The notes beneath the pieces are model-generated. The model was not told where the DNA came from, made no database searches, and saw only the letters and a program-made list of their open reading frames with translations. A DNA stretch of 63,872 nt, filler included, from Stramenopiles sp. TOSAG23-2 (Eukaryota), in assembly GCA_900128395.1 (NCBI GenBank). It is 6 parts of 6 records of this genome, joined end to end, with 100 filler letters (N's around TTAATTAATTAA, not from the genome) between each part and the next. Parts side by side here need not be neighbours in the genome. Positions count along the whole stretch, not along the records: positions 28,584 to 57,063 come from LT649400.1; 5 more parts are not named here. One strand, written 5' to 3'. Positions within the stretch are counted from its first letter, which is position 1. Each line of letters opens with the position of its first letter. This document shows positions 210 to 48,777 of the stretch, in pieces. Position numbers and translations under genes: made by a program.

Positions 210-431
210 AATAGAAATTGAAAGAAACCACTCCATCTCATCTAATGTTTAAAATACAAATACTAAAATATAAACAAACAGAACAAAAAAAAAAAAAATG
301 GCATCGTTAGTACAAAGGAAAATAGAAATTGAAAGAAACCACTCCATCTCATCTAATGTTTAAAATACAAATACTAAAATATAAACAAACAGAACAAAAA
401 AAAAAAAATGGCATCGTTAGTACAAAGGAAA
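210..431. repeat. ~110-bp exact tandem duplication covering the 5' leader and first codons of the 408..1655 gene
   Basis: AATAGAAATTGAAAGAAACCAC...ATGGCATCGTTAGTACAAAGGAA occurs twice back to back (about 210-320 and 321-431). Confidence 0.9.
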
Positions 432-10445: not shown

Positions 10446-11057
<612 letters not shown>

Positions 11058-11509
11058 TTGTATTGTTCTTGTAGAGAATAATTAGATATTGGTTACTTTT
11101 TGTATATATATATATATATATAGAAAATGTATAAAAAGAATAAATATTTTTATTTAAAATATATATATATATTTAACACTACACAGTATTGAAAAGTCTA
11201 CTCTACATGATTTTAAGGATATAGCTCTAGAGTCAGATATTACTGAATACAAAAAATCGAAGAAAGATACGAAAAGTTCGTGTACGAACGTAAAAGAGGA
11301 AATTCTCTTTCTTGATAACATTTTTCAAATTTTAATAAAAACACAAAGAGATATAAAATTAAAAAGAACAAAAACACACCCCATCATTTCTCCTTCTTCT
11401 ATTAAAAAGAACCAAAAAGACATATTTTTATATATTACAACACGCGCTCATTTTATGATATAGATTATACACACTGGCACACACACACACATCATATGCA
11501 TATCTTCTT

Positions 11510-12895
11510 CTAAGCAAATACAGTAAATAATTGTATTGCACCAGCCGCAGCACCTAATACACCACCAACAAAAACTAATTTTGCTTCATCTTCTTGAAAT
11601 ACTGGATGTAACACATCTTCAAATTTTTTTGGTGGTAAAGATTGCATAGCTGTTCTCAATGTATATTCAAAATTTAACGCTTCTTTCATATATTCATATG
11701 TACATGGTGTTAACTTTGGTAATTGCTTTTCAATTTCTTTTTCGATATATTTATGCATATTTTCAACTTCTTTTGGATCCAAAGATAAACCAATAATAGG
11801 ACTAAAGCTACCAATCATTTTTTTCGACATTTTACGTACATGATGTCGAAGGATGGCATAAAATTTTTTACTTTCCTTCGTTCGTTTTACTCCTTCTTTT
11901 CTATCAGCTTGTAAAATAAATCTCCATAACAAGTGAGGAGTGACAACTTCATCTGCCATTATTTTTGCAAAAACACGCGAGACTTTAGGTTGACGTGTCA
12001 AAAATATACCTTGTATCGTGCAACAACAAATATTGACAGGATTCGTCGGATTAAATATTATATACAAGGCAATGTAATTAGTTGCAATACCAACAATAAA
12101 ACCAGCAGCTGGTAAAACCCACATACCTTTGTAAAAATACCATAAAATAGTTTGCAATACGCCAAACAAAAATCCTAAATAAGCACCAGAACGTTCAATA
12201 AATGTGAATTCTTTATCACCACATTGTTTAAAAACGTTATTTAACAATTCTTTACGTTCATTTAACATCGTAACAACGGCATTTTCAACATCTAAAACTG
12301 CTTCAATATCTTCCCCAACCTCATTCATCAATCCAATGATCATTTCAGGGCATGCATCGATCGCACCATTTACAAAAATTTGTTGTAAACTCTGTGGTTG
12401 CAATGTCCATAACTTGCCTAAAAATTTATGTCCTACGTCATCCATTAATTTATGTATAACAGGTACTAATTGCGGTTTCATAATATCAGCAATCGTTTCA
12501 GGATCAACGCGTGCAAATACTTCTTGTAAGCTAAACAATTCACGTGTCATTAATTCAATGCATTTCCTTGCCATATCAGGTGCTTTTGTTGGAATGATGC
12601 CTTGCCAACCTATGCAACCAATAGGTTGCTTATCTCCACACAAATACCGTTTAATAGGAACCCCTGTAAATTCTAAAGGCCAAAACGTTAAAAACAATGC
12701 AACGACGTTTGTACCCCATCCGATGATGGCAGCAAAAATAGGGACGGTAACATATAACCAAATATTTCCATAGCATGGCAAACCTTCTGCTTCAAGGCAG
12801 CTTATTGAATTGGTATTTGTTGTAGCATCAACAATAGAAGAGGTATTCATCATTATTATTAGTGCCTCTCTCTCTGAAGAGTGGGTGAAGTGCAT
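11510..12895 (-). CDS. DUF445-family integral membrane protein (copy 1)
   Basis: IIGWGTNVVAL..F.P, GWQGIIP.KA, GIATNYIAL.IIF.P, QGIFL.RQ, LHPVFQEDE.KLV.VGGVLGA; first ATG is about 14 codons into the ORF. Confidence 0.8.
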   Translation of the reverse strand: MHFTHSSEREALIIMMNTSSIVDATTNTNSISCLEAEGLPCYGNIWLYVTVPIFAAIIGWGTNVVALFLTFWPLEFTGVPIKRYLCGDKQPIGCIGWQGIIPTKAPDMARKCIELMTRELFSLQEVFARVDPETIADIMKPQLVPVIHKLMDDVGHKFLGKLWTLQPQSLQQIFVNGAIDACPEMIIGLMNEVGEDIEAVLDVENAVVTMLNERKELLNNVFKQCGDKEFTFIERSGAYLGFLFGVLQTILWYFYKGMWVLPAAGFIVGIATNYIALYIIFNPTNPVNICCCTIQGIFLTRQPKVSRVFAKIMADEVVTPHLLWRFILQADRKEGVKRTKESKKFYAILRHHVRKMSKKMIGSFSPIIGLSLDPKEVENMHKYIEKEIEKQLPKLTPCTYEYMKEALNFEYTLRTAMQSLPPKKFEDVLHPVFQEDEAKLVFVGGVLGAAAGAIQLFTVFA

Positions 12896-12973
12896 TGCCT
12901 TATTCTTCTATATAAAATCACTTATGCATGAATCTAATATATAATAATGAATAATGATGAAAAAAACCCCTGA

Positions 12974-13399
<426 letters not shown>

Positions 13400-13851
13400 T
13401 TGTATTGTTCTTGTAGAGAATAATTAGATATTGGTTACTTTTTGTATATATATATATATATATAGAAAATGTATAAAAAGAATAAATATTTTTATTTAAA
13501 ATATATATATATATTTAACACTACACAGTATTGAAAAGTCTACTCTACATGATTTTAAGGATATAGCTCTAGAGTCAGATATTACTGAATACAAAAAATC
13601 GAAGAAAGATACGAAAAGTTCGTGTACGAACGTAAAAGAGGAAATTCTCTTTCTTGATAACATTTTTCAAATTTTAATAAAAACACAAAGAGATATAAAA
13701 TTAAAAAGAACAAAAACACACCCCATCATTTCTCCTTCTTCTATTAAAAAGAACCAAAAAGACATATTTTTATATATTACAACACGCGCTCATTTTATGA
13801 TATAGATTATACACACTGGCACACACACACACATCATATGCATATCTTCTT

Positions 13852-15237
13852 CTAAGCAAATACAGTAAATAATTGTATTGCACCAGCCGCAGCACCTAAT
13901 ACACCACCAACAAAAACTAATTTTGCTTCATCTTCTTGAAATACTGGATGTAACACATCTTCAAATTTTTTTGGTGGTAAAGATTGCATAGCTGTTCTCA
14001 ATGTATATTCAAAATTTAACGCTTCTTTCATATATTCATATGTACATGGTGTTAACTTTGGTAATTGCTTTTCAATTTCTTTTTCGATATATTTATGCAT
14101 ATTTTCAACTTCTTTTGGATCCAAAGATAAACCAATAATAGGACTAAAGCTACCAATCATTTTTTTCGACATTTTACGTACATGATGTCGAAGGATGGCA
14201 TAAAATTTTTTACTTTCCTTCGTTCGTTTTACTCCTTCTTTTCTATCAGCTTGTAAAATAAATCTCCATAACAAGTGAGGAGTGACAACTTCATCTGCCA
14301 TTATTTTTGCAAAAACACGCGAGACTTTAGGTTGACGTGTCAAAAATATACCTTGTATCGTGCAACAACAAATATTGACAGGATTCGTCGGATTAAATAT
14401 TATATACAAGGCAATGTAATTAGTTGCAATACCAACAATAAAACCAGCAGCTGGTAAAACCCACATACCTTTGTAAAAATACCATAAAATAGTTTGCAAT
14501 ACGCCAAACAAAAATCCTAAATAAGCACCAGAACGTTCAATAAATGTGAATTCTTTATCACCACATTGTTTAAAAACGTTATTTAACAATTCTTTACGTT
14601 CATTTAACATCGTAACAACGGCATTTTCAACATCTAAAACTGCTTCAATATCTTCCCCAACCTCATTCATCAATCCAATGATCATTTCAGGGCATGCATC
14701 GATCGCACCATTTACAAAAATTTGTTGTAAACTCTGTGGTTGCAATGTCCATAACTTGCCTAAAAATTTATGTCCTACGTCATCCATTAATTTATGTATA
14801 ACAGGTACTAATTGCGGTTTCATAATATCAGCAATCGTTTCAGGATCAACGCGTGCAAATACTTCTTGTAAGCTAAACAATTCACGTGTCATTAATTCAA
14901 TGCATTTCCTTGCCATATCAGGTGCTTTTGTTGGAATGATGCCTTGCCAACCTATGCAACCAATAGGTTGCTTATCTCCACACAAATACCGTTTAATAGG
15001 AACCCCTGTAAATTCTAAAGGCCAAAACGTTAAAAACAATGCAACGACGTTTGTACCCCATCCGATGATGGCAGCAAAAATAGGGACGGTAACATATAAC
15101 CAAATATTTCCATAGCATGGCAAACCTTCTGCTTCAAGGCAGCTTATTGAATTGGTATTTGTTGTAGCATCAACAATAGAAGAGGTATTCATCATTATTA
15201 TTAGTGCCTCTCTCTCTGAAGAGTGGGTGAAGTGCAT
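13852..15237 (-). CDS. DUF445-family membrane protein (identical copy 2)
   Basis: protein identical to copy 1. Confidence 0.7.
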   Translation of the reverse strand: MHFTHSSEREALIIMMNTSSIVDATTNTNSISCLEAEGLPCYGNIWLYVTVPIFAAIIGWGTNVVALFLTFWPLEFTGVPIKRYLCGDKQPIGCIGWQGIIPTKAPDMARKCIELMTRELFSLQEVFARVDPETIADIMKPQLVPVIHKLMDDVGHKFLGKLWTLQPQSLQQIFVNGAIDACPEMIIGLMNEVGEDIEAVLDVENAVVTMLNERKELLNNVFKQCGDKEFTFIERSGAYLGFLFGVLQTILWYFYKGMWVLPAAGFIVGIATNYIALYIIFNPTNPVNICCCTIQGIFLTRQPKVSRVFAKIMADEVVTPHLLWRFILQADRKEGVKRTKESKKFYAILRHHVRKMSKKMIGSFSPIIGLSLDPKEVENMHKYIEKEIEKQLPKLTPCTYEYMKEALNFEYTLRTAMQSLPPKKFEDVLHPVFQEDEAKLVFVGGVLGAAAGAIQLFTVFA

Positions 15238-15826
15238 TGCCTTATTCTTCTATATAAAATCACTTATGCATGAATCTAATATATAATAATGAATAATGAT
15301 GAAAAAAACCCCTGATGCCAACCTGGCCCAGCTGGCCAACTGCCAAAACACAAAAATATTTTTTTTGCTGATCTGGCAATCCAGCAATGCCAGAATGCCA
15401 GAATGCCAGAATGCCTGCTAAGGCCTGCTGCTGGGCCTGCCCAGCCTGCTACAGTAGACGACTATAAGGCCTCTGGAATGCGGAAAGGTCTTTGAAATAA
15501 TTTAGGTTGCTGATTGTTCAAAATTAGCTTTAGCACTTTACCACAACATGCACCATCACTACTACGCACCAACATTTAAATAGAGGTAACAGGTAACTAA
15601 GTAAGAAATATGACATGCCAATAATAATACAACAGTAATTGCTGCTATTATATATATAAGAACTAAAAAAAAAACAAAAAAAAAACGCTTCTTCAACATT
15701 TATAGATAGTAAATATCAAAACTATAGAAATAAAACAAATGAATAAGAACAAATAATATTTATACAAACAAACGAATATATACATACAAAAAAATTTCCC
15801 GATAAATTTATTTAGATCTATGAAAT

Positions 15827-36085: not shown

Positions 36086-38287
36086 ATGGATATAAATAGT
36101 ACATCAGCAGCAACGTTGCTGGAAAAAGTTGCATTACTAGAGCAAAAAATTGCTAGTATTGAAAATCAGCAAAATAATTATTGGTTATTGTCTAGTGCTT
36201 TTTCAATTTTCTTTATGCAGGCAGGATTTTTATTATTAGAAGCTGGTTCTGTTATGTCTAAAAATGTTAAAAGTATAATGATGAAAAATTTACTTGATAC
36301 GTTTGGTGGTGGATTAGCCTGGTATATATGTGGATTTTACGTATATATGTATTTTGCAGATCAAAATGCACCGCCATTTGCACCGATACCAATTGTAGAA
36401 AAATCACAGAAGGATTTGATTTATAATATGTTTATCCAATCTTTTACGTTTGCGAATTGTGCCAGTACAATAGCAAGTGGTGGAAGCGCTAGTAGGATGA
36501 AATCTATGGGTCATTTAAGTTTGGTATTGTTTTTGACGGCATATGTTTATCCTGTATTTGCCCATTGGTTGTGGGCTACGAATGGTTGGTTGCATCAGTT
36601 GGGTGCAATCGATTTTGCCGGTGGCTCAAGTGTACATATGTTGGGCGGAATTGCTGCTTTGATCGGGGCAATATCTGTCGGTCCGAGACATGGTCGTTTT
36701 ATTAAAACGATACAAGGGACATTGAAAGTTCGAGAAATTAAAGGACATAATGCAGTTCTAATCATGACCGGTACAAGTATTTTATGGTATGGTTGGTTTA
36801 GTTTTAATGGTGGATCCTCGGGATATGATAATAAATACCAAAGTATATTGCGATCGACAGCAAGTTTAAATACATTGATTGGTGGTTGTGCTGGTGGAGT
36901 CACGGTACATATCGTGAATATTATTAAAAATCGTAATCAGAAAATTGATTATAGTGAGGATGATGATAAGCGTCGTCAAGTGTATCAACCATATGAGTTT
37001 AACGATTTGGCACTTGGGATATTGGGTGGTTTAGTCACAGTTACGCCATGTGGGCCATTTATACCTGTATGGGCTGCTATTCTGTCGTCATTCGTGGGAG
37101 TATCCTTTGGTGCATGGGTATCTGAGAAAATGGTACAACTTGGTATTGATGATCCAGTCGATGCATTTGCAACACATGTACCTCCAGCAATTGTTGGTAT
37201 ATTGGCGATTGGATTGTTTGCTACAAAAGAAAGTCTTATACAATATGGCATACCAACGTGTATAGACGAGGCCAATTGTAGCTATGGTGTATTATTAGGT
37301 GGTGGGTGGCAATTGCTAGGTGCACAATGTTTATTGTTACTCATATGCATCGTATGGTCGTCGCAATCATACATTTTCTTAGCAATCTATAAGCGTTTTG
37401 GTAATGATCCGGAAAATCCACCATGTGGTTTTAAAAGTTGTTTGTATCGATTTACAAAACAGGAGGAAAAAGTTGGTTTGGATTTGTCATTTTATGATGG
37501 ATATGCATATCCAGAGATACAAGTACCGGAAGATTTGGTCCTTGCCTCTGGTGTAAAAAATGTAAAGCGTATTATTTTCCCTGGAAGCTTATCAAATAGA
37601 AACAGTAGCAAATTGGAAATGAATGGCGCTAACAATTCGGAAAAGAAAAAAGTAGATTTTAGGGATACTGTGCTTGAATTACCAAGAATTGATTTAACAC
37701 TTGGTGGTAAATATTTCATACGAATAGCAAATTCTGGTGATGTGGAGAAAATTTTTGAGATAGTCAACGCGTCATATGAAGTTGAAAAAGATGAAAATTC
37801 TGAATTTAAATTCAAATCCATGGACTATTTTCAACATACCGATGAAGTCAAAAACATCATTAAAAATAATAATGGTTCAACGTTAATCATTGCAATCGAC
37901 ACAGATACTTTGAAGATTGTTGGTTGTATTGGTTTAACAAAGGAACTTGTTGCTACTAATAATAAGAAGAAGAAAAAGAAAAGTGATAAAAATGCTATGG
38001 TTGTAAAAATTAGTCCATTTGCTACTAGTGTTCAGGAACAAAACAAAGGTATTGGAAAGAAGCTAATTGAATATGCCATTACATTTTGTAGAAAGGATGA
38101 AATATCAATTTTAAAGGCATGGGTCATTAATTGGAGAACCGATCTTTTTGAAATATATAAAAAATTAGGTTTTGTTGCGACCAAGACAACTAAAAAATAT
38201 ATAGCAAAAACTGATGATGATAAAATAAAAGAAGGCACATATTTACAATTATTTCAATTAAATATTCCTGCTGCAGATAGTACGTAA
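36086..38287 (+). CDS. ammonium transporter (Amt1-like) fused to a C-terminal GNAT acetyltransferase domain
   Basis: FFMQAGFLLLEAG, YPVFAHWLW, DFAGGSSVH, LWYGWFSFNGGS, IDDPVDAFATH, E.VGLD; then IRIANSGDVEKI..IVGCIG..ISPFATSVQEQNKGIGKKLIEYA..LFEIYKKLGF (GNAT). Confidence 0.92.
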   Translation: MDINSTSAATLLEKVALLEQKIASIENQQNNYWLLSSAFSIFFMQAGFLLLEAGSVMSKNVKSIMMKNLLDTFGGGLAWYICGFYVYMYFADQNAPPFAPIPIVEKSQKDLIYNMFIQSFTFANCASTIASGGSASRMKSMGHLSLVLFLTAYVYPVFAHWLWATNGWLHQLGAIDFAGGSSVHMLGGIAALIGAISVGPRHGRFIKTIQGTLKVREIKGHNAVLIMTGTSILWYGWFSFNGGSSGYDNKYQSILRSTASLNTLIGGCAGGVTVHIVNIIKNRNQKIDYSEDDDKRRQVYQPYEFNDLALGILGGLVTVTPCGPFIPVWAAILSSFVGVSFGAWVSEKMVQLGIDDPVDAFATHVPPAIVGILAIGLFATKESLIQYGIPTCIDEANCSYGVLLGGGWQLLGAQCLLLLICIVWSSQSYIFLAIYKRFGNDPENPPCGFKSCLYRFTKQEEKVGLDLSFYDGYAYPEIQVPEDLVLASGVKNVKRIIFPGSLSNRNSSKLEMNGANNSEKKKVDFRDTVLELPRIDLTLGGKYFIRIANSGDVEKIFEIVNASYEVEKDENSEFKFKSMDYFQHTDEVKNIIKNNNGSTLIIAIDTDTLKIVGCIGLTKELVATNNKKKKKKSDKNAMVVKISPFATSVQEQNKGIGKKLIEYAITFCRKDEISILKAWVINWRTDLFEIYKKLGFVATKTTKKYIAKTDDDKIKEGTYLQLFQLNIPAADST

Positions 38288-40386: not shown

Positions 40387-41197
40387 AGAAGAAGAAAGTG
40401 TATTTAAAATCGAATATTTTAAGTCGTCCATTCTGGCATTGTTGTCTTTGGCACTTTGGTCTTTGGTCTCTTCTTCTTCTTCAGTCTCGTCTAAAAACCA
40501 GATCGTGATATTTTCCCTATATTCCAATTATTTTAAATCTTAATATGAAGTCAGATATTTTAATTTGTAGAAAAAAACCATTTATATTATGAATTTATAT
40601 AGTAGCTTACTATTTATTATTTTAATTAAAATGTAAATAATCGGCTATTTTCTACTCATTCGAAGAATACGCAGGCATAGGGCTAACATGTGAGAACTAG
40701 CAAAATAGCGATATTTGATTATTCTAATATCCACTATTAAGTTGTAGTTGTTATAATAGTATTTGAAAACTTCAAACAGATGTTCCACAGCAACATGGAC
40801 CACCCGTATGTACCTGCTAAAAACCTCAACTCACAAAGTAAAAGAAGATGACGAAAATAAAAAAAAAGAAGGAATTCTTATTCTGGAATTATTATTACGT
40901 AGGTGTGTGGTGGCATATTATTACTGTAATAATAATATACGGTAGAGTACCAAGTATAATAATAATGAATAAAACATCCCTTCTTTATCAGACGACAATA
41001 TAAACATATTATATACAAGTTTATTACACATCATACATGTACATACAGGTTACAGTAAACGAGCATAAACGTCAATAAACCAATTTATATTCTTATATTT
41101 ATCAATTTATTAGAATATAAATATATACATATAAGTGATTCTTGTTGATATAGATATATCATATAATACATATTTGTTAGGATATATATTTAAAAGG

Positions 41198-43384
41198 ATG
41201 GGGGAGCGTATTATACATGAGGAACGAGCACCCTCGTTATTCGAAGGTGAAGAAAATGATAATATTTTTACTGGTACTGTATTGGAACAACTATACGTCC
41301 CAGGTCTTGTATATAATAACCGTCGCAACAACATTAACGTTGTTAGTGAACCGCCATCGAATAAAGATAACTCTAAGGCAGCGGCATTGCAATTTGTGAA
41401 GCAGCAATTGCTTCTAAACGGGGACGAAAGCAATAATTCTACAGTAAATAATCTTGATACTTTTACCTTTGATGGTATAGGGGAACAAAACCCTTGTGGA
41501 GAAGAAGAAGCAACTTATAACGATGATTCATTGATGTGGATGGAAGACATGGACACTAGTAGCAGCGACGAAAGTGCTACATTAAGCCCATTCTTAAGTT
41601 CGAATGCATCAAGTATGCTGACCGGTGCATCCCTTTTTGATTTCGCTGTTGATCGGGATCTTGTCCCAAATAGTAAGTCATCAGTTGCAAATAATACTAG
41701 TAATAGTAACAATAACAAATTGCCTTCGACATTTACGGATGAAGAAAATAATATAATCAATGATGGTGTTGATAATGAGTGGAGTTGGGAAGATATTGCA
41801 AGTAAATGCAATAATAAAACTGCTAAACAATGCTCACAACAATGGCGTAAAATAGTAAAAACAGTAAGTGTACACGAAGTACCATGGACGAAGGAAGAAG
41901 ACGGAATTATACGTAAAGGTGTTGAGGAAGGAATGTCCTGGCAAAATATAGCTAAATTAACAAAGCGACGTTTATCTCGACAATGTTCACAACGATGGCG
42001 TAAAGTATTGGATCCAAGTATTAAACGTTTTGTGAAATGGAGTAAAGAGGAAGATTTGAAATTGATGGAATTGCATAGAAATTATCCAACGATGACAAAT
42101 AAGGAGATGTCATCACATTTACCTGGACGCACATCAACACAATGCCATAATCGTTGGGTTGAAGTATTAAACCCAGATTTACGTCGTGGTGTATTTAGTG
42201 AAGAGGAAGATTTACGTATTTTGGAATTACGTAAAGCAGGTCAAGGTTGGAGTGCAATGGCGAAAGATTCCATTTTGATCGGTCGTGCAAATGTAGCATT
42301 AAAAACGCGTTGGCGAATATTGGATAGGCGAATAAAAAAACAGACTTCAGAAATCGATAATAATGCCAGAACAAACGCAAAAATTAGGAGAACATTGACG
42401 GGAAAACGGAAGAAGGAAAAAGATGATGTAATAGTACATCAAAATAATGTAATAATAAATGCTGCTTTACTCAATAATCAGGAGGAAGAAAAAATAGGTG
42501 AAGAATTCTTTATAGACGAAGGACGTGCTTTAGCAACGTTAGCACAGCATATAATTGAAAGCACAATTGGAAATAATGTATTCGGAGGACAAATATCAAC
42601 TCCTTTGATTCCAGCAGCAATTGCTACCACCACCACCACTACTAGAACAACAGTAGAAAAGCAAAAAAAGAGAAGAAAGAATAACAATAACAATAACAAA
42701 TTGCCTTCGACATTTACGGATGAAGAAAATAATATAATCAATGATGGTGTTGATAATGAGTGGAGTTGGGAAGATATTGCAAGTAAATGCAATAATAAAA
42801 CTGCTAAACAATGCTCACAACAATGGCGTAAAATAGTAAAAACAGTAAGTGTACACGAAGTACCATGGACGAAGGAAGAAGACGGAATTATACGTAAAGG
42901 TGTTGAGGAAGGAATGTCCTGGCAAAATATAGCTAAATTAACAAAGCGACGTTTATCTCGACAATGTTCACAACGATGGCGTAAAGTATTGGATCCAAGT
43001 ATTAAACGTTTTGTGAAATGGAGTAAAGAGGAAGATTTGAAATTGATGGAATTGCATAGAAATTATCCAACGATGACAAATAAGGAGATGTCATCACATT
43101 TACCTGGACGCACATCAACACAATGCCATAATCGTTGGGTTGAAGTATTAAACCCAGATTTACGTCGTGGTGTATTTAGTGAAGAGGAAGATTTACGTAT
43201 TTTGGAATTACGTAAAGCAGGTCAAGGTTGGAGTGCAATGGCGAAAGATTCCATTTTGATCGGTCGTGCAAATGTAGCATTAAAAAATCGTTGGCATACA
43301 TTGACAAAACGTAACAAAAATGCTCAAAAGCGAAAGGTAAAGCAGGTCAAGGTTGGAGTGCAATGGCGAAAGATTCCATTTTGA
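41198..43384 (+). CDS. multi-repeat Myb/SANT transcription factor (two identical blocks of four repeats)
   Basis: FTDEEN..W..IA..C.QQW, WTKEED..W.NIA..QC.QRW..VLDP, WSKEED..PGRT..QCHNRW, FSEEED..W..MA..GR..LK.RW; first ATG at 41198; true end probably KVKNCA* at 43479. Confidence 0.9.
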   Translation: MGERIIHEERAPSLFEGEENDNIFTGTVLEQLYVPGLVYNNRRNNINVVSEPPSNKDNSKAAALQFVKQQLLLNGDESNNSTVNNLDTFTFDGIGEQNPCGEEEATYNDDSLMWMEDMDTSSSDESATLSPFLSSNASSMLTGASLFDFAVDRDLVPNSKSSVANNTSNSNNNKLPSTFTDEENNIINDGVDNEWSWEDIASKCNNKTAKQCSQQWRKIVKTVSVHEVPWTKEEDGIIRKGVEEGMSWQNIAKLTKRRLSRQCSQRWRKVLDPSIKRFVKWSKEEDLKLMELHRNYPTMTNKEMSSHLPGRTSTQCHNRWVEVLNPDLRRGVFSEEEDLRILELRKAGQGWSAMAKDSILIGRANVALKTRWRILDRRIKKQTSEIDNNARTNAKIRRTLTGKRKKEKDDVIVHQNNVIINAALLNNQEEEKIGEEFFIDEGRALATLAQHIIESTIGNNVFGGQISTPLIPAAIATTTTTTRTTVEKQKKRRKNNNNNNKLPSTFTDEENNIINDGVDNEWSWEDIASKCNNKTAKQCSQQWRKIVKTVSVHEVPWTKEEDGIIRKGVEEGMSWQNIAKLTKRRLSRQCSQRWRKVLDPSIKRFVKWSKEEDLKLMELHRNYPTMTNKEMSSHLPGRTSTQCHNRWVEVLNPDLRRGVFSEEEDLRILELRKAGQGWSAMAKDSILIGRANVALKNRWHTLTKRNKNAQKRKVKQVKVGVQWRKIPF
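41707..43286. repeat. ~600-bp exact internal direct repeat in the Myb gene (about 41707-42305 and 42688-43286)
   Basis: identical DNA at 981-bp offset, separated by unique in-frame sequence. Confidence 0.9.
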
Positions 43385-44750
43385 TCGGTCGTGCAAATGT
43401 AGCATTAAAAAATCGTTGGCATACATTGACAAAACGTAACAAAAATGCTCAAAAGCGAAAGGTAAAGAATTGTGCCTGAAGTGAACAATCCTGTCTGAGG
43501 TTCTTGGTGAAACGAAGTGTATGTATTATGATAATTAATTAATATAATACCTAAAATTTTGTTTTGATTTCTAATTATATATTATGTGTATTTTAATTTG
43601 TTGGCTTTTTGTTAAGCTGGTACGCTATTTTTAGCCTAGCCAGCTATAGCTCTAGCCACTAGCCGGGCTAGCAACGTGCCCTACGCACCTACCAGGTGGT
43701 AGTTAGCTGTATAAAAATTTAAATTTTTCCCTATCCCTCATACTTCAAATTAAATATTGCTGAGTAACTAGGTATAGCTACTAGGTACAATGCTATAAAA
43801 TTACTGATGTAATTAGTGGTTCTATAGAATCCACAGAATCCGAGATACAGGTGCCTGCCTGCCCAGCCTGCCTGCCCGGCCTGTGTGTGTGGTGGTGTGG
43901 TTACAAAGTTACAAGTGCAAAATTTAGTGTGTAGGTTTTTAACAATATTTAACTATTATATCTATATCGATATTCTTAGTAGTTCTACTTTCCATGTTCA
44001 AGTCAATGCTATTTCCACGTAACACAATTCATGTTTTGTACACACGGTACGCGACACACGTTGCCGGTAAATTTCACTTTACTTGTTACTTGTTAGTATA
44101 CTAAAAACAAGGATTTTAAAAACTAAAAAAACAAAAAATAAATAATACAACTAAAGAAGAGGGATAATTAACACAACTATAGATAATATACAGTATACAT
44201 ATTACAAATGGTAGATATAATAACTTGTAACAATTACATACAAATAAGAAAAAGTCATTTTCGGGGTCTACTGCGTTTCGAACTATAACAGAGATCACGG
44301 AAGAGGAAGTATATATATATATATAAATATTACTACTGTTATATATATACATTCTTCTGTAGGAATTAGGTAGTAAATACCTTCCCTTTCTGGAAAAAAG
44401 AAGCTGGGGAAAAAGAAAAAAAACAAAACAATATATATACTACTATCTCAGCAGTAATTGATACACAAACAAGTGGTGTATACGAGTAGTTGCCTGGCGT
44501 ATTTGTATAAATATTGACTTAATAAACAGTATCCTGTGTCTATCGTCTCTTGTACAAAACGATACATAGTTGAAAGTCAATATTTTACATTTACCGTCGT
44601 ATAGAGGTAAACAACTAATTTTCCAAGTACAACTATATAATATAATATAATATAATATAGTATATCAATATTATATATATACGTAGTGGTACTTAAATTT
44701 TCCAAACAAAATAGAAAACCATATTACTAGAAAATATAATAGTAATAATC

Positions 44751-46812: not shown

Positions 46813-48777
46813 TTAAAATACCTTTTCACATGATGGATGTTTTTCCCTGATGGTATCGTCTTTTGGAGTATTGCCAAAACGATCTTTGGCATTTAAAATA
46901 GCATCATTGCCTTTGGCATTTGCGATTAAATACTTTACACAATTCAGATGGCCATTACTTGATGCTAAATGAAGCGCAGTTCTATGATCATAATCAGCAG
47001 CATGTAAATTCATACCTCGTGCATGGAGGCGCACGAGGGTATCCAAATCACCTTCAGCTGCGGCAAAGAGAATTTGTGGTGCGATATCTGATACATTGTC
47101 TGTATTTAAATTATCTTCCGAGGACTTATTATAATGATCGGTTGAACCTTCGACACCACCTGCTTCTTTTAACATGGCTGCGCATGCCTCATGCTTATTA
47201 GCAATTGCATCGCCAAATGGAGTGCCACCCCATCTATCTTTTGCATTTATAGCATTTTCTTCGTTATATGTTTTTGCTCGTTTGATTAAAAATTCCAAAG
47301 CATTTAACTGACCTTCCGTCGCTGCTAAGTGCATTGCCGTTCTTAAATCATAATCTCCTTCAAAAACATTAGTTCCAGCATTTGCTTGGCTTTCCAATGA
47401 AGCAACATCACCTTCGCTAGCTGCATATAATAATTCACCGATTTCTTTTTGTTCCTCGGAATGTTTACGCGTTGTTATAACCAATTTATCTGTGGCTAAA
47501 CCGGAAAATACTTCAAATGCATTTAGTTTCACACGCTTTACCAATTCACGTGCAACTGCTACACCACGTTCTGAATTGCCGATTTTATCTAATCGTGGAG
47601 ACCAGACTGCAATACCACATACATTTGGAATGACCATGTAAACACAGCCACCGACACCTGATTTAGCAGGTACGCCAACATCAAATGCCCACTGTCCAGA
47701 ATAATCATACATGCCACATGTCAACATCAATGGCAACGCGTGTCGGATTGATTCAGGGGTACATACGCGATGGCCACTTATTGGATTTAACCCACCATTT
47801 GCCATCGTCGCTGCGGTAATGGACATGCATTTGCTGGTTGATAAAATGGAGCAAATTTGAAAATACAACTCCAATGTATCGCTTAAACTTTTGGTACCAT
47901 CATAACTGAAACATGGTGGCCATGATTTACGCTCACGCATCATATATCCTAAGCACCAATTTCTATCAGCAGTAGCACTTTCACTTTTGTACGTCGGTTC
48001 ATCAAAACCAACTGGTGCATCTAAACCACCACTTAATTCTTTCCAATAATTTATAACCTTTTGTAATCGTTCCTCACGACTTTCAACTTCAGGGAAGACC
48101 ATGGAACATGATAAAATTGCACCAGCATTGATGCATGGATTGTGCGGAACAGCACGATTGCCATTTTCTGGTATTGGTGCTGATTTTAACGCCATCGCAT
48201 TGAAAGGTAAACCGCTTGGCTCTGTTCCAACATATTTATGGACATAATCTTCGCCAAACTGGTTCAATGCAATGATGTAGGAAATTGGTTTCGAGCAAGA
48301 TTGAATACAAAATTGCTTATCATGATCGCCAATACTAAAATGTTGCCCATCAATTGTCGTGATTGAGATAGCAAATTGCTCTGGATCAACCTGTGCTAAT
48401 TGTGGGATATAATCAGCATTATCTCCATTTTTGTTTGGTTCGACTTGTTTATATACCTCTTCGATAATATTTGTTAGTGTTTTGAAATCCGGTACAACCA
48501 AGTCACCCGTAATACATTTGTGTATCAACGTTGAACACGTTTGTATAGCATCACAAAATTGTTGCAACGTAAGACGTTGGTCATTTTTCACGCCATCAAT
48601 CGATTCAAGAAATTGGAAAAATCCTTTCAATCGCTTGTCATCATCATGTAAACCATTGTTTTTTAAAAATTGTATTAAATAAGTGGATGATACCGTCCCA
48701 TCATTATTTAAATCAAGCGCTTCAAAGACTTGCTTATCACGCGTAGTAATGTCATGGTGTGCAATAACTGAGGTCAT
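46813..48777 (-). CDS. GLS: glutaminase with N-terminal EF-hand-like region and two C-terminal three-repeat ankyrin modules
   Basis: ADYIPQLA, FCIQSCSKP (catalytic SxxK), VGTEPSG.PFN, PHNPCINAGAI, LELYFQICS, CGMYDYSG.WAF.VG.PAKSGVGG, SPRLD..GNS.RG; two DYD.RTA.HLA..DR(W/F)G.TP modules. Confidence 0.96.
   Translation of the reverse strand: MTSVIAHHDITTRDKQVFEALDLNNDGTVSSTYLIQFLKNNGLHDDDKRLKGFFQFLESIDGVKNDQRLTLQQFCDAIQTCSTLIHKCITGDLVVPDFKTLTNIIEEVYKQVEPNKNGDNADYIPQLAQVDPEQFAISITTIDGQHFSIGDHDKQFCIQSCSKPISYIIALNQFGEDYVHKYVGTEPSGLPFNAMALKSAPIPENGNRAVPHNPCINAGAILSCSMVFPEVESREERLQKVINYWKELSGGLDAPVGFDEPTYKSESATADRNWCLGYMMRERKSWPPCFSYDGTKSLSDTLELYFQICSILSTSKCMSITAATMANGGLNPISGHRVCTPESIRHALPLMLTCGMYDYSGQWAFDVGVPAKSGVGGCVYMVIPNVCGIAVWSPRLDKIGNSERGVAVARELVKRVKLNAFEVFSGLATDKLVITTRKHSEEQKEIGELLYAASEGDVASLESQANAGTNVFEGDYDLRTAMHLAATEGQLNALEFLIKRAKTYNEENAINAKDRWGGTPFGDAIANKHEACAAMLKEAGGVEGSTDHYNKSSEDNLNTDNVSDIAPQILFAAAEGDLDTLVRLHARGMNLHAADYDHRTALHLASSNGHLNCVKYLIANAKGNDAILNAKDRFGNTPKDDTIREKHPSCEKVF

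Follow-up and report, generated by a model that had tools for sequence, protein, structure and literature searches.

A stretch of assembled DNA from the eukaryote Stramenopiles sp. TOSAG23-2 (assembly GCA_900128395.1), 63,872 nucleotides long with filler and hereafter called the window, holds a gene whose product joins an ammonium transporter (Amt) to an acetyltransferase of the GNAT superfamily. Here, we show by profile searches, homology searches, structure prediction and phylogenetic analysis that this fusion is genuine and conserved, and we tentatively propose that the protein may be a transceptor-like device in which ammonium occupancy is coupled to acetylation by the tethered enzyme.

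The locus encodes an Amt fused to a GNAT domain

The gene is a single exon, an open reading frame (ORF) that runs from an ATG start through 733 codons without a stop and encodes the protein labelled P0001 here (Table 1). At a local GC content of 0.35, the same as that of the adjacent genes, a run of 733 stop-free codons excludes a chance origin, an argument made by reasoning, with no statistic computed. The Pfam family Ammonium_transp covers residues 33–434 of P0001 (E = 6e-73; 246.3 bits, cut-off 23.2), and further towards the C-terminus lie Acetyltransf_1 (PF00583, residues 577–696, E = 5.5e-8; 33.5 bits, cut-off 20.7) and Acetyltransf_10 (PF13673, E = 1.4e-6; 28.8 bits, cut-off 23.6), the GNAT families together spanning residues 545–709. 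DFAGGSSVH (from residue 176, ending in H184) and DAFATH (from residue 359, ending in H364) are found in the Amt part, QEQNKGIGKKL (650) and YKKLGF (691) in the GNAT part. A full-length AlphaFold2 (AF2) model, built from the 63-row alignment A4, has a mean predicted local distance difference test score (pLDDT) of 86.1, a predicted template-modelling score (pTM) of 0.70 and 11 long membrane helices.

The first-pass annotation had described an uninterrupted ORF, a complete Amt with both pore histidines and a C-terminal GNAT domain carrying the motifs above, and all of this is borne out, the last point by Pfam, by the AF2 fold and by Foldseek. The linker between the two domains, described as short, proved to be longer: about 58 residues separate the end of the Amt part, near residue 477, from strand 1 of the GNAT fold near residue 543. 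The functional readings offered there, an ammonium-gated acetyltransferase or a transporter that acetylates an amine substrate or a partner protein, are plausible hypotheses.

The fusion is genuine and conserved

Three full-length relatives of P0001 came out of a homology search across 5.8 billion proteins. The closest, P0002 (733 residues), is 99% identical, with 6 substitutions, and lies on a separate contig of 2,582 nucleotides. P0005 (680 residues) and P0006 (682 residues) are 40% and 39% identical at a coverage of 99–100%, figures that vary with the alignment between 39 and 44% over the whole length, and each carries both the Amt and the GNAT Pfam families. The start and stop positions of the full-length proteins coincide. 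Among the fragments, P0003 (545 residues, 61% identity) and P0160 (177 residues, 66%) extend from Amt sequence across the linker and into the GNAT domain, P0004 (403 residues, 63%) stops where the linker ends, and P0122 (174 residues, 60%) is the remainder of a GNAT domain. Compared segment by segment with P0005 and P0006, P0001 shows 46–48% identity in the Amt core, 52–58% in the Amt C-terminal region, 38–40% in the GNAT domain and 18–22% in the linker.

In a quick maximum-likelihood (ML) tree of 63 GNAT domains, from which 7 of 70 profile matches had been dropped for covering fewer than 120 profile positions, the Amt-fused domains of P0001, P0122, P0005, P0123 and P0006 form one clade (Shimodaira–Hasegawa-like approximate likelihood-ratio test, SH-aLRT, 100), whose stem measures 1.09 changes per site. 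P0123 (183 residues), nested beside P0005, is probably a fragment of another fused gene. This grouping suggests a single old fusion event that has been maintained by selection.

Could the fusion be an artefact, either a chimera of the assembly or two genes read through? In favour of this, other parts of the window hold two near-perfect tandem duplications, which are possible assembly faults. Against this, the same architecture recurs on independent contigs and in at least five diverged sources, with matching termini and a conserved junction, and we reject an in-frame chimera, for which the first-pass annotation had allowed, because the fusion is kept in diverged relatives: six proteins, from five sources mutually less than 90% identical, span the junction in one frame. 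We regard an artefact as exceedingly improbable, and as effectively refuted already.

The Amt module

The Amt module has the marks of its family (PF00909), with a profile score above cut-off, 11 predicted helices, the twin histidines, a phenylalanine gate, an outer Trp/Ser site and the conserved aspartate. W163, D176, H184, F122, F240, S244 and H364, which we take to be the equivalents of the pore residues in AmtB numbering, are invariant in the fused sequences that cover them (5 or 6 of 6), and the same columns are conserved in 25–26 of 26 other Amts. The NCBIfam model TIGR00836 aligns residues 30–473 to its positions 1–404 of 406 with 259.3 bits, below its cut-off of 343.3. As a separate observation, Tyr153 of P0001 is Trp in all five relatives, the 99%-identical P0002 included.

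P0001 also matches the N1/N2 ammonium-receptor signature, QX6EX15NX2D[F/T]X54-60TX2[S/T] (Pfluger et al.; PMC11152129). All seven signature residues are kept in P0005 and P0006, whose loops of 48 and 52 residues (55 in P0001) fall outside the stated range of 54–60. Judged by its sequence, the module carries every residue known to recruit or conduct ammonium, together with the N1/N2 side-pocket ligands.

The cytosolic C-terminal region of the Amt is the best-conserved segment between P0001 and P0005 or P0006. It retains the usual elements of Amt C-termini (R455..E460-E461..G464-x-D466..A474-Y475) and is remodelled in the fused family only, where K458, K462, F469, G472 and Y473 are invariant; Y470 and D471 occur in five of the six fused sequences, Y470 replacing a His that is found in 25 of the 26 other Amts. 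K219 in loop 5 is likewise specific to the fused family. The lysines K219, K436, K458 and K462 are invariant in that family (K436 in 5 of 6), and Lys occupies these positions in 1, 0, 2 and 0, respectively, of the 26 others.

The sequon at Asn4 is present in P0001, P0005 and P0006, and yeast Mep2 also has one. Amts have 11 transmembrane (TM) helices, so that their two termini face opposite sides (PMC11152129). Such a topology, together with the Asn4 sequon, would place the N-terminus of P0001 outside the cytosol and its GNAT domain inside. If P0001 is a trimer as other Amts are, three enzymes would sit beneath one trimer.

Table 1. Positions in the window of the Amt-GNAT gene, its parts and further features
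Feature	Position	Strand	Basis or remark
Whole ORF, 733 residues and stop (Amt, linker, GNAT)	36086..38287	+	termini match the full-length orthologues P0005 and P0006
N-terminal segment, residues 1-30, with sequon N-x-S/T at Asn4 and conserved amphipathic helix LLExVAxLE	36086..36175	+	alignment; helix from residue 8 in the model
Amt/Mep/Rh membrane domain, residues 33-434, 11 predicted TM helices	36182..37387	+	Pfam 6e-73; AF2 pLDDT mostly >90
N1/N2 signature match, residues 45-131 (Q45, E52, N68, D71, T72, T128, S131)	36218..36478	+	regular expression
Tyr153	36542..36544		Trp in relatives
Pore twin His, H184	36635-36637	+	column counts
Pore twin His, H364	37175-37177	+	column counts
Amt cytosolic C-terminal region, residues 441-477, containing RFTKQEEKVGLDLSFYDGYAYPE	37406..37516	+	column counts in alignment A3
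Linker, residues 478-535, poorly conserved, predicted disordered	37517..37690	+	pLDDT; 18-22% identity
Pre-GNAT motif F525-x2-T528-x2-E531-x-P533	37658-37684		invariant in alignment A1
GNAT acetyltransferase domain, residues 536-730	37691..38275	+	Pfam, AF2, Foldseek
Acetyl-CoA motif Q652-N-K-G-I-G657	38039-38056	+	sequence
Invariant Tyr691	38156-38158	+	42-sequence alignment
Second Amt gene (Amt-ankyrin), 910 residues	49568..52300	+	
Glutaminase gene	46813..48777	-	
Myb-repeat gene	41135..43384	+	
125-nt tandem repeat	43212-43461		after the internal repeat of the Myb gene
Ubiquitin-eS30 gene	10464..11057	+	
Tandem duplication, 2,343 nt, two copies	10732..13074 / 13074..15416		perfect
PI3/PI4-kinase gene, 1,282 residues	15827..19675	+	
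Direct repeat, ~100 nt	about 216..300 and 327..411		left end of the window

The linker and the GNAT domain

The linker is the least well-defined part of the AF2 model, with a pLDDT below 50 over residues 499–540. Directly before the GNAT domain stands the motif FxxTxxExP, which is missing from standalone GNAT relatives, as these begin after that segment.

The GNAT domain is modelled with confidence from residue 543 to residue 726 in the full-length protein and reaches a pLDDT of 88.9 and a pTM of 0.83 when modelled alone (42-row alignment A5); a Lys-rich insert occupies residues ~620–633. Foldseek gives a probability of 1.00 to many GNAT structures, among them NatD, RimI-like, phosphinothricin-type, SpeG and Naa60, at identities of only 11–19% and target TM-scores of up to 0.87. 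GNAT enzymes have an acetyl-CoA motif Q/R-x-x-G-x-G/A and a catalytic Tyr. Both are found in P0001, alongside the fold and the two profiles above cut-off that mark membership of the superfamily: among 42 sequences, Y691 is the sole invariant column, and conservation reaches 90% or more at Q652, G655, G657 and R684. The domain thus looks catalytically competent; its acceptor cannot be read from homology. In a Protein Atlas search, the whole of P0001 had no usable match, and the GNAT domain matched generic bacterial GNAT clusters only.

An exhaustive HMMER search with residues 520–733 against 1.84 billion representative proteins found 68 relatives with E<=1e-3; of these, 3 reach E<=1e-10 and a single one E<=1e-30. 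Those beyond the fragments of the fused family are mostly 160–250 residues long and share the motifs VN.AY.vE.G..G..FK and VVN.RTDL..Y...GF. Seventeen of the 18 relatives that were scanned are GNATs, and in four the GNAT is preceded by a partner other than an Amt, namely an EamA transporter, ankyrin repeats, an RRM or a cytidine-deaminase domain. The GNAT domain of P0001 has the fold and motifs of these standalone enzymes ('VN.AY.vE..FK / VVNxRTDL..Y..GF') and of the EamA, ankyrin, RRM and deaminase fusions, whereas the Amt-fused GNATs stand apart in the long-stemmed clade described above and those with non-Amt partners are scattered across the tree. One of the latter, P0148 (545 residues, from outside the window), joins an EamA-family transporter to a C-terminal GNAT of the same subfamily and is a second, independent transporter-GNAT fusion.

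A GNAT subfamily that fuses so promiscuously with other domains, tethered here by a disordered and poorly conserved segment, raises the question of whether the Amt does no more than hold the enzyme at the membrane, or the reverse, with no cross-talk between the two. We consider such an arrangement improbable. Selection has preserved all pore and N1/N2 residues across distances of ~40% identity, the changes in the Amt C-terminal region are specific to the fusion family, the motif before the GNAT domain is conserved, and the fused GNATs have the long stem of their own described above.

Among solved structures, the sequence profile of the GNAT subfamily matches PaiA best (1tiq, 4.6e-16, near full length), and Naa50, RimI, Ard1 and, over their full length, diamine acetyltransferases (1e-10) are also among its best relatives. 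PaiA acts on polyamines, and the P0001 enzyme could accordingly belong to metabolism, acetylating an amino acid, a polyamine or an amino sugar where ammonium enters or leaves, with the Amt providing supply and localisation and no signalling being involved. The fusions of the same GNAT subfamily to a metabolite transporter (P0148) and to a cytidine-deaminase domain (P0186) would agree with this, as would a glutaminase gene and a second Amt gene 8.5–14 kb downstream. However, to our knowledge the Amt pore passes only ammonium and methylammonium, neither of them a known GNAT acceptor. Protein N-acetyltransferases (Naa50, RimI, Ard1, NatD) score equally well, no curated GNAT family reaches its cut-off, and gene neighbourhood means little in eukaryotes. 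Metabolic coupling of this kind seems to us rather unlikely.

Comparison with known Amt systems

The solved Amts that match P0001 best are Ks-Amt5 (6EU6, 2e-36) and Sd-Amt1 (8QJ3/8QPF, 4e-31), ahead of Mep2 (1e-25), Af-Amt1 (2e-23) and AmtB (1e-19). Ks-Amt5 is an ammonium sensor in which an Amt is joined to a histidine kinase (PDB 6EU6; PMC5764959), and Sd-Amt1 a receptor in which it is joined to a HAMP domain and a diguanylate cyclase (PDB 8QJ3/8QJ4/8QPF; PMC11152129); the expectation that bacterial Amt fusions serve as ammonium sensors is therefore well founded for kinase and cyclase outputs. Like these two, P0001 has an Amt with all pore motifs and N1/N2 ligands and a cytosolic enzyme at the C-terminus. 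In contrast to them, its output domain is a GNAT where theirs is a dimerising kinase or cyclase, and its host is a eukaryote; at the pore exit, the Asn of Sd-Amt1 is a Leu in P0001. P0001 thus appears to be built, and may work, like the bacterial sensor Amts, although the resemblance is non-specific, and we do not file it among the ammonium receptors (AmR), because a structured connector to the enzyme is lacking and an ammonium-responsive output is only presumed. By sequence criteria it belongs to the Amt family and the GNAT superfamily, and to no named GNAT subfamily.

A scan of 185,579 prokaryotic genomes identified nine related Amt loci, in none of which (0 of 9) the match extends past query residue 485. 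Two of the nine encode Amt-GGDEF-EAL fusions, in two P-II is fused to the Amt or adjacent to it (L001, L009), and one adjoins a gene for a GAF protein. We found no description of the Amt-GNAT architecture in the literature, in agreement with the claim that it is undescribed, although it may already sit unstudied in listings of domain architectures.

Fusions of an Amt to a P-II protein are frequent among relatives: of the best 120 Amt relatives listed, 83 are Amt-P-II fusions, 34 consist of an Amt only and 3 are Amt-GNAT proteins. As in these fusions and in the bacterial AmtB-GlnK pair, P0001 has at the C-terminus of the Amt a soluble module of a kind that may report nitrogen or carbon status. 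The P-II plug is a trimer without enzymatic activity and binds ATP, ADP and 2-oxoglutarate, whereas the module in P0001 has a monomer-type acetyltransferase fold with its catalytic residues retained. The shared position nonetheless suggests that the GNAT could be a regulator in cis, a eukaryotic stand-in for the P-II/GlnK plug that reads acetyl-CoA as a measure of carbon and energy status and opens or shuts the Amt, either by docking on its cytosolic face or by acetylating lysines there (K219 of loop 5 and, further on, K458 and K462 of the C-terminal region). Several observations fit such a role: P-II occupies the same C-terminal position in most of the relatives just listed and follows the Amt or is fused to it in the two prokaryotic loci; the four lysines set the fused family apart from the 26 other Amts, which seldom have them; and a flexible tether would allow the enzyme to contact the subunit that bears it or an adjacent one. 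On the other side, the acceptor-side GNAT motifs (VN.AY.vE...FK and NWRTDL) are common to standalone enzymes and unrelated fusions, which argues for a substrate that is not Amt-specific, and we know of no GNAT domain that acts as an acetyl-CoA sensor in transport. Nor did a literature search turn up any Amt that is controlled by lysine acetylation.

Plant AMT1 and fungal Mep2 offer a further comparison, as eukaryotic Amts of which AMT1 falls in the same N1/N2 cluster (PMC11152129). Both are controlled in their activity through the cytosolic C-terminus, and for AMT1 this control is established as post-translational (PMC7737296), a precedent that speaks for regulation in cis. AMT1 and Mep2 have no fused enzyme, however, and are regulated by separate kinases, and in P0001 the H-G of their C-terminal region has become Y-D, with two invariant lysines in addition. 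Weighing these points, we hold control of the pore by the GNAT to be unlikely, if a serious alternative to the transceptor.

Genomic surroundings

The window is eukaryotic in character, AT-rich, gene-dense and nearly intron-free, with runs of poly-N, poly-Q and poly-K. Its genes include those for a protein kinase, a Myb protein, a PI3/PI4-kinase with FYVE, SAC3/GANP, an RFC1-like ATPase and a Mei2-type RRM protein. Scans for Rfam families and for tRNA genes gave no match, and no telomeric repeats were found at the ends of the window. A tyrosyl-tRNA synthetase (TyrRS), compared as a guide to kinship, has relatives at 99, 87, 83, 75 and 70% identity, and its best matches from named organisms, animals and one ichthyosporean, stand at about 53%. 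Against solved structures it resembles the human (7e-135) and yeast (2e-123) enzymes more than a third group, probably apicomplexan and kinetoplastid, at about 5e-26, which favours an opisthokont-type enzyme; eS30 gave no such indication. Dictyostelids, Naegleria, rumen ciliates and gut fungi were considered as possible kin, and none of them found support.

A second Amt gene in the window encodes an Amt followed by a long ankyrin-repeat region. This Amt-ankyrin protein is 26% identical to the Amt-GNAT protein, is without the N1/N2 signature and has Gln in place of the second pore His; a literature search on Amt-ankyrin proteins likewise gave nothing on the Amt-GNAT architecture. Head-to-head with it, ~790 bp apart, lies a glutaminase gene whose product has an N-terminal EF-hand_14 domain and C-terminal ankyrin repeats. 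The positions of the three genes put an ammonium-releasing enzyme and two Amts within ~16 kb.

The perfect 2,343-nt tandem duplication starts inside the ubiquitin-eS30 gene and copies a 461-residue ORF without a Pfam match; it is either a very recent event or an assembly artefact. In the Myb-repeat gene, an internal direct repeat with a spacing of 981 nt and 99–100% identity doubles the Myb block, and a 125-nt tandem follows it. The ubiquitin-eS30 gene itself joins a ubiquitin-like domain to ribosomal protein eS30, as in FAU, its eS30 part matching mammalian eS30 chains best. The PI3/PI4-kinase carries its FYVE zinc finger in the N-terminal part, an unusual combination. A direct repeat at the left end of the window lies just before the first ORF.

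Discussion

How might an Amt and an acetyltransferase work together in one protein? The reading towards which we lean, without holding it to be probable, is that P0001 is a transceptor-like device. Binding or passage of ammonium would shift the cytosolic face of the Amt, that is loop 5 and the family-specific C-terminal region, and this shift would alter the access to, or the activity of, the tethered GNAT. Acetyl-CoA-dependent acetylation of some nearby cytosolic acceptor would then report the ammonium supply, so that nitrogen (NH4+) and carbon status (acetyl-CoA) would be combined in one output, possibly while the Amt continues to transport. A route through the C-terminus and loop 5 has been proposed for Ks-Amt5 (PMC5764959), and control by way of the C-terminus is established for plant AMT1 (PMC7737296). 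The transceptor is supported by the sensor Amts being the best solved matches, by the N1/N2 match, by the two Amt-GGDEF-EAL fusions among the nine prokaryotic loci and by the retained enzyme motifs, while the family-specific C-terminal residues and the FxxTxxExP motif are candidate coupling elements. That both domains are conserved and the linker is not also counts in its favour.

A number of observations, however, weigh against the transceptor. The N1/N2 signature is non-specific, as 92 of 121 near relatives match it, and the N1/N2 cluster comprises 29.6% of Amts, with the plant AMT1 transporters among them (PMC11152129). At the position of the exit-narrowing Asn269 of Sd-Amt1, with which Leu310 of P0001 aligns (a mapping read from the alignment), the fused family has L, L, K, N, L and L, compared to Asn in 25 of 26 others. 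The connection to the enzyme differs as well: the connector of P0001, a tether of about 58 residues after the retained Amt C-terminal region, is variable in length, poorly conserved and predicted to be disordered, with no structured element of the helical or HAMP type, whereas in Ks-Amt5 and Sd-Amt1 the connection is direct or helical/HAMP. The frequency of P-II at the same position in relatives favours regulation in cis. On the enzyme side, none of the named GNAT subfamilies (RimI, N-acetylglutamate synthase, SSAT/SpeG, aminoglycoside AAC, PAT) reaches its NCBIfam cut-off, the best match being TIGR01575 rimI with 23.7 bits against a cut-off of 86.4 and all others also falling far below, and the Foldseek matches are generic and point to no acceptor. 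Finally, we found no precedent in the literature for acetylation as the output of a transporter-receptor.

The transceptor can also be put in a stronger form, in which occupancy of N1/N2 switches on the GNAT and extracellular nitrogen is written as acetyl marks on cytosolic proteins or metabolites. P0001 would then be the first eukaryotic Amt receptor with an enzymatic output; we see this form as conceivable and somewhat unlikely.

It has long been asked how eukaryotic cells sense ammonium. Mep2 and AMT1 have been argued to act as transceptors, with a downstream link that is indirect, and a natural fusion of an Amt to an enzyme offers a direct read-out, namely the release of CoA with and without NH4+. 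If the GNAT regulates the pore instead, P0001 would provide the first acetyl-CoA-linked control of ammonium transport. If P0001 is indeed a transceptor, the principle of the bacterial sensor Amts, with their kinase and cyclase outputs, would extend to eukaryotes and to acetylation, and should N1/N2 occupancy be the switch, a single protein would integrate NH4+ and acetyl-CoA status.

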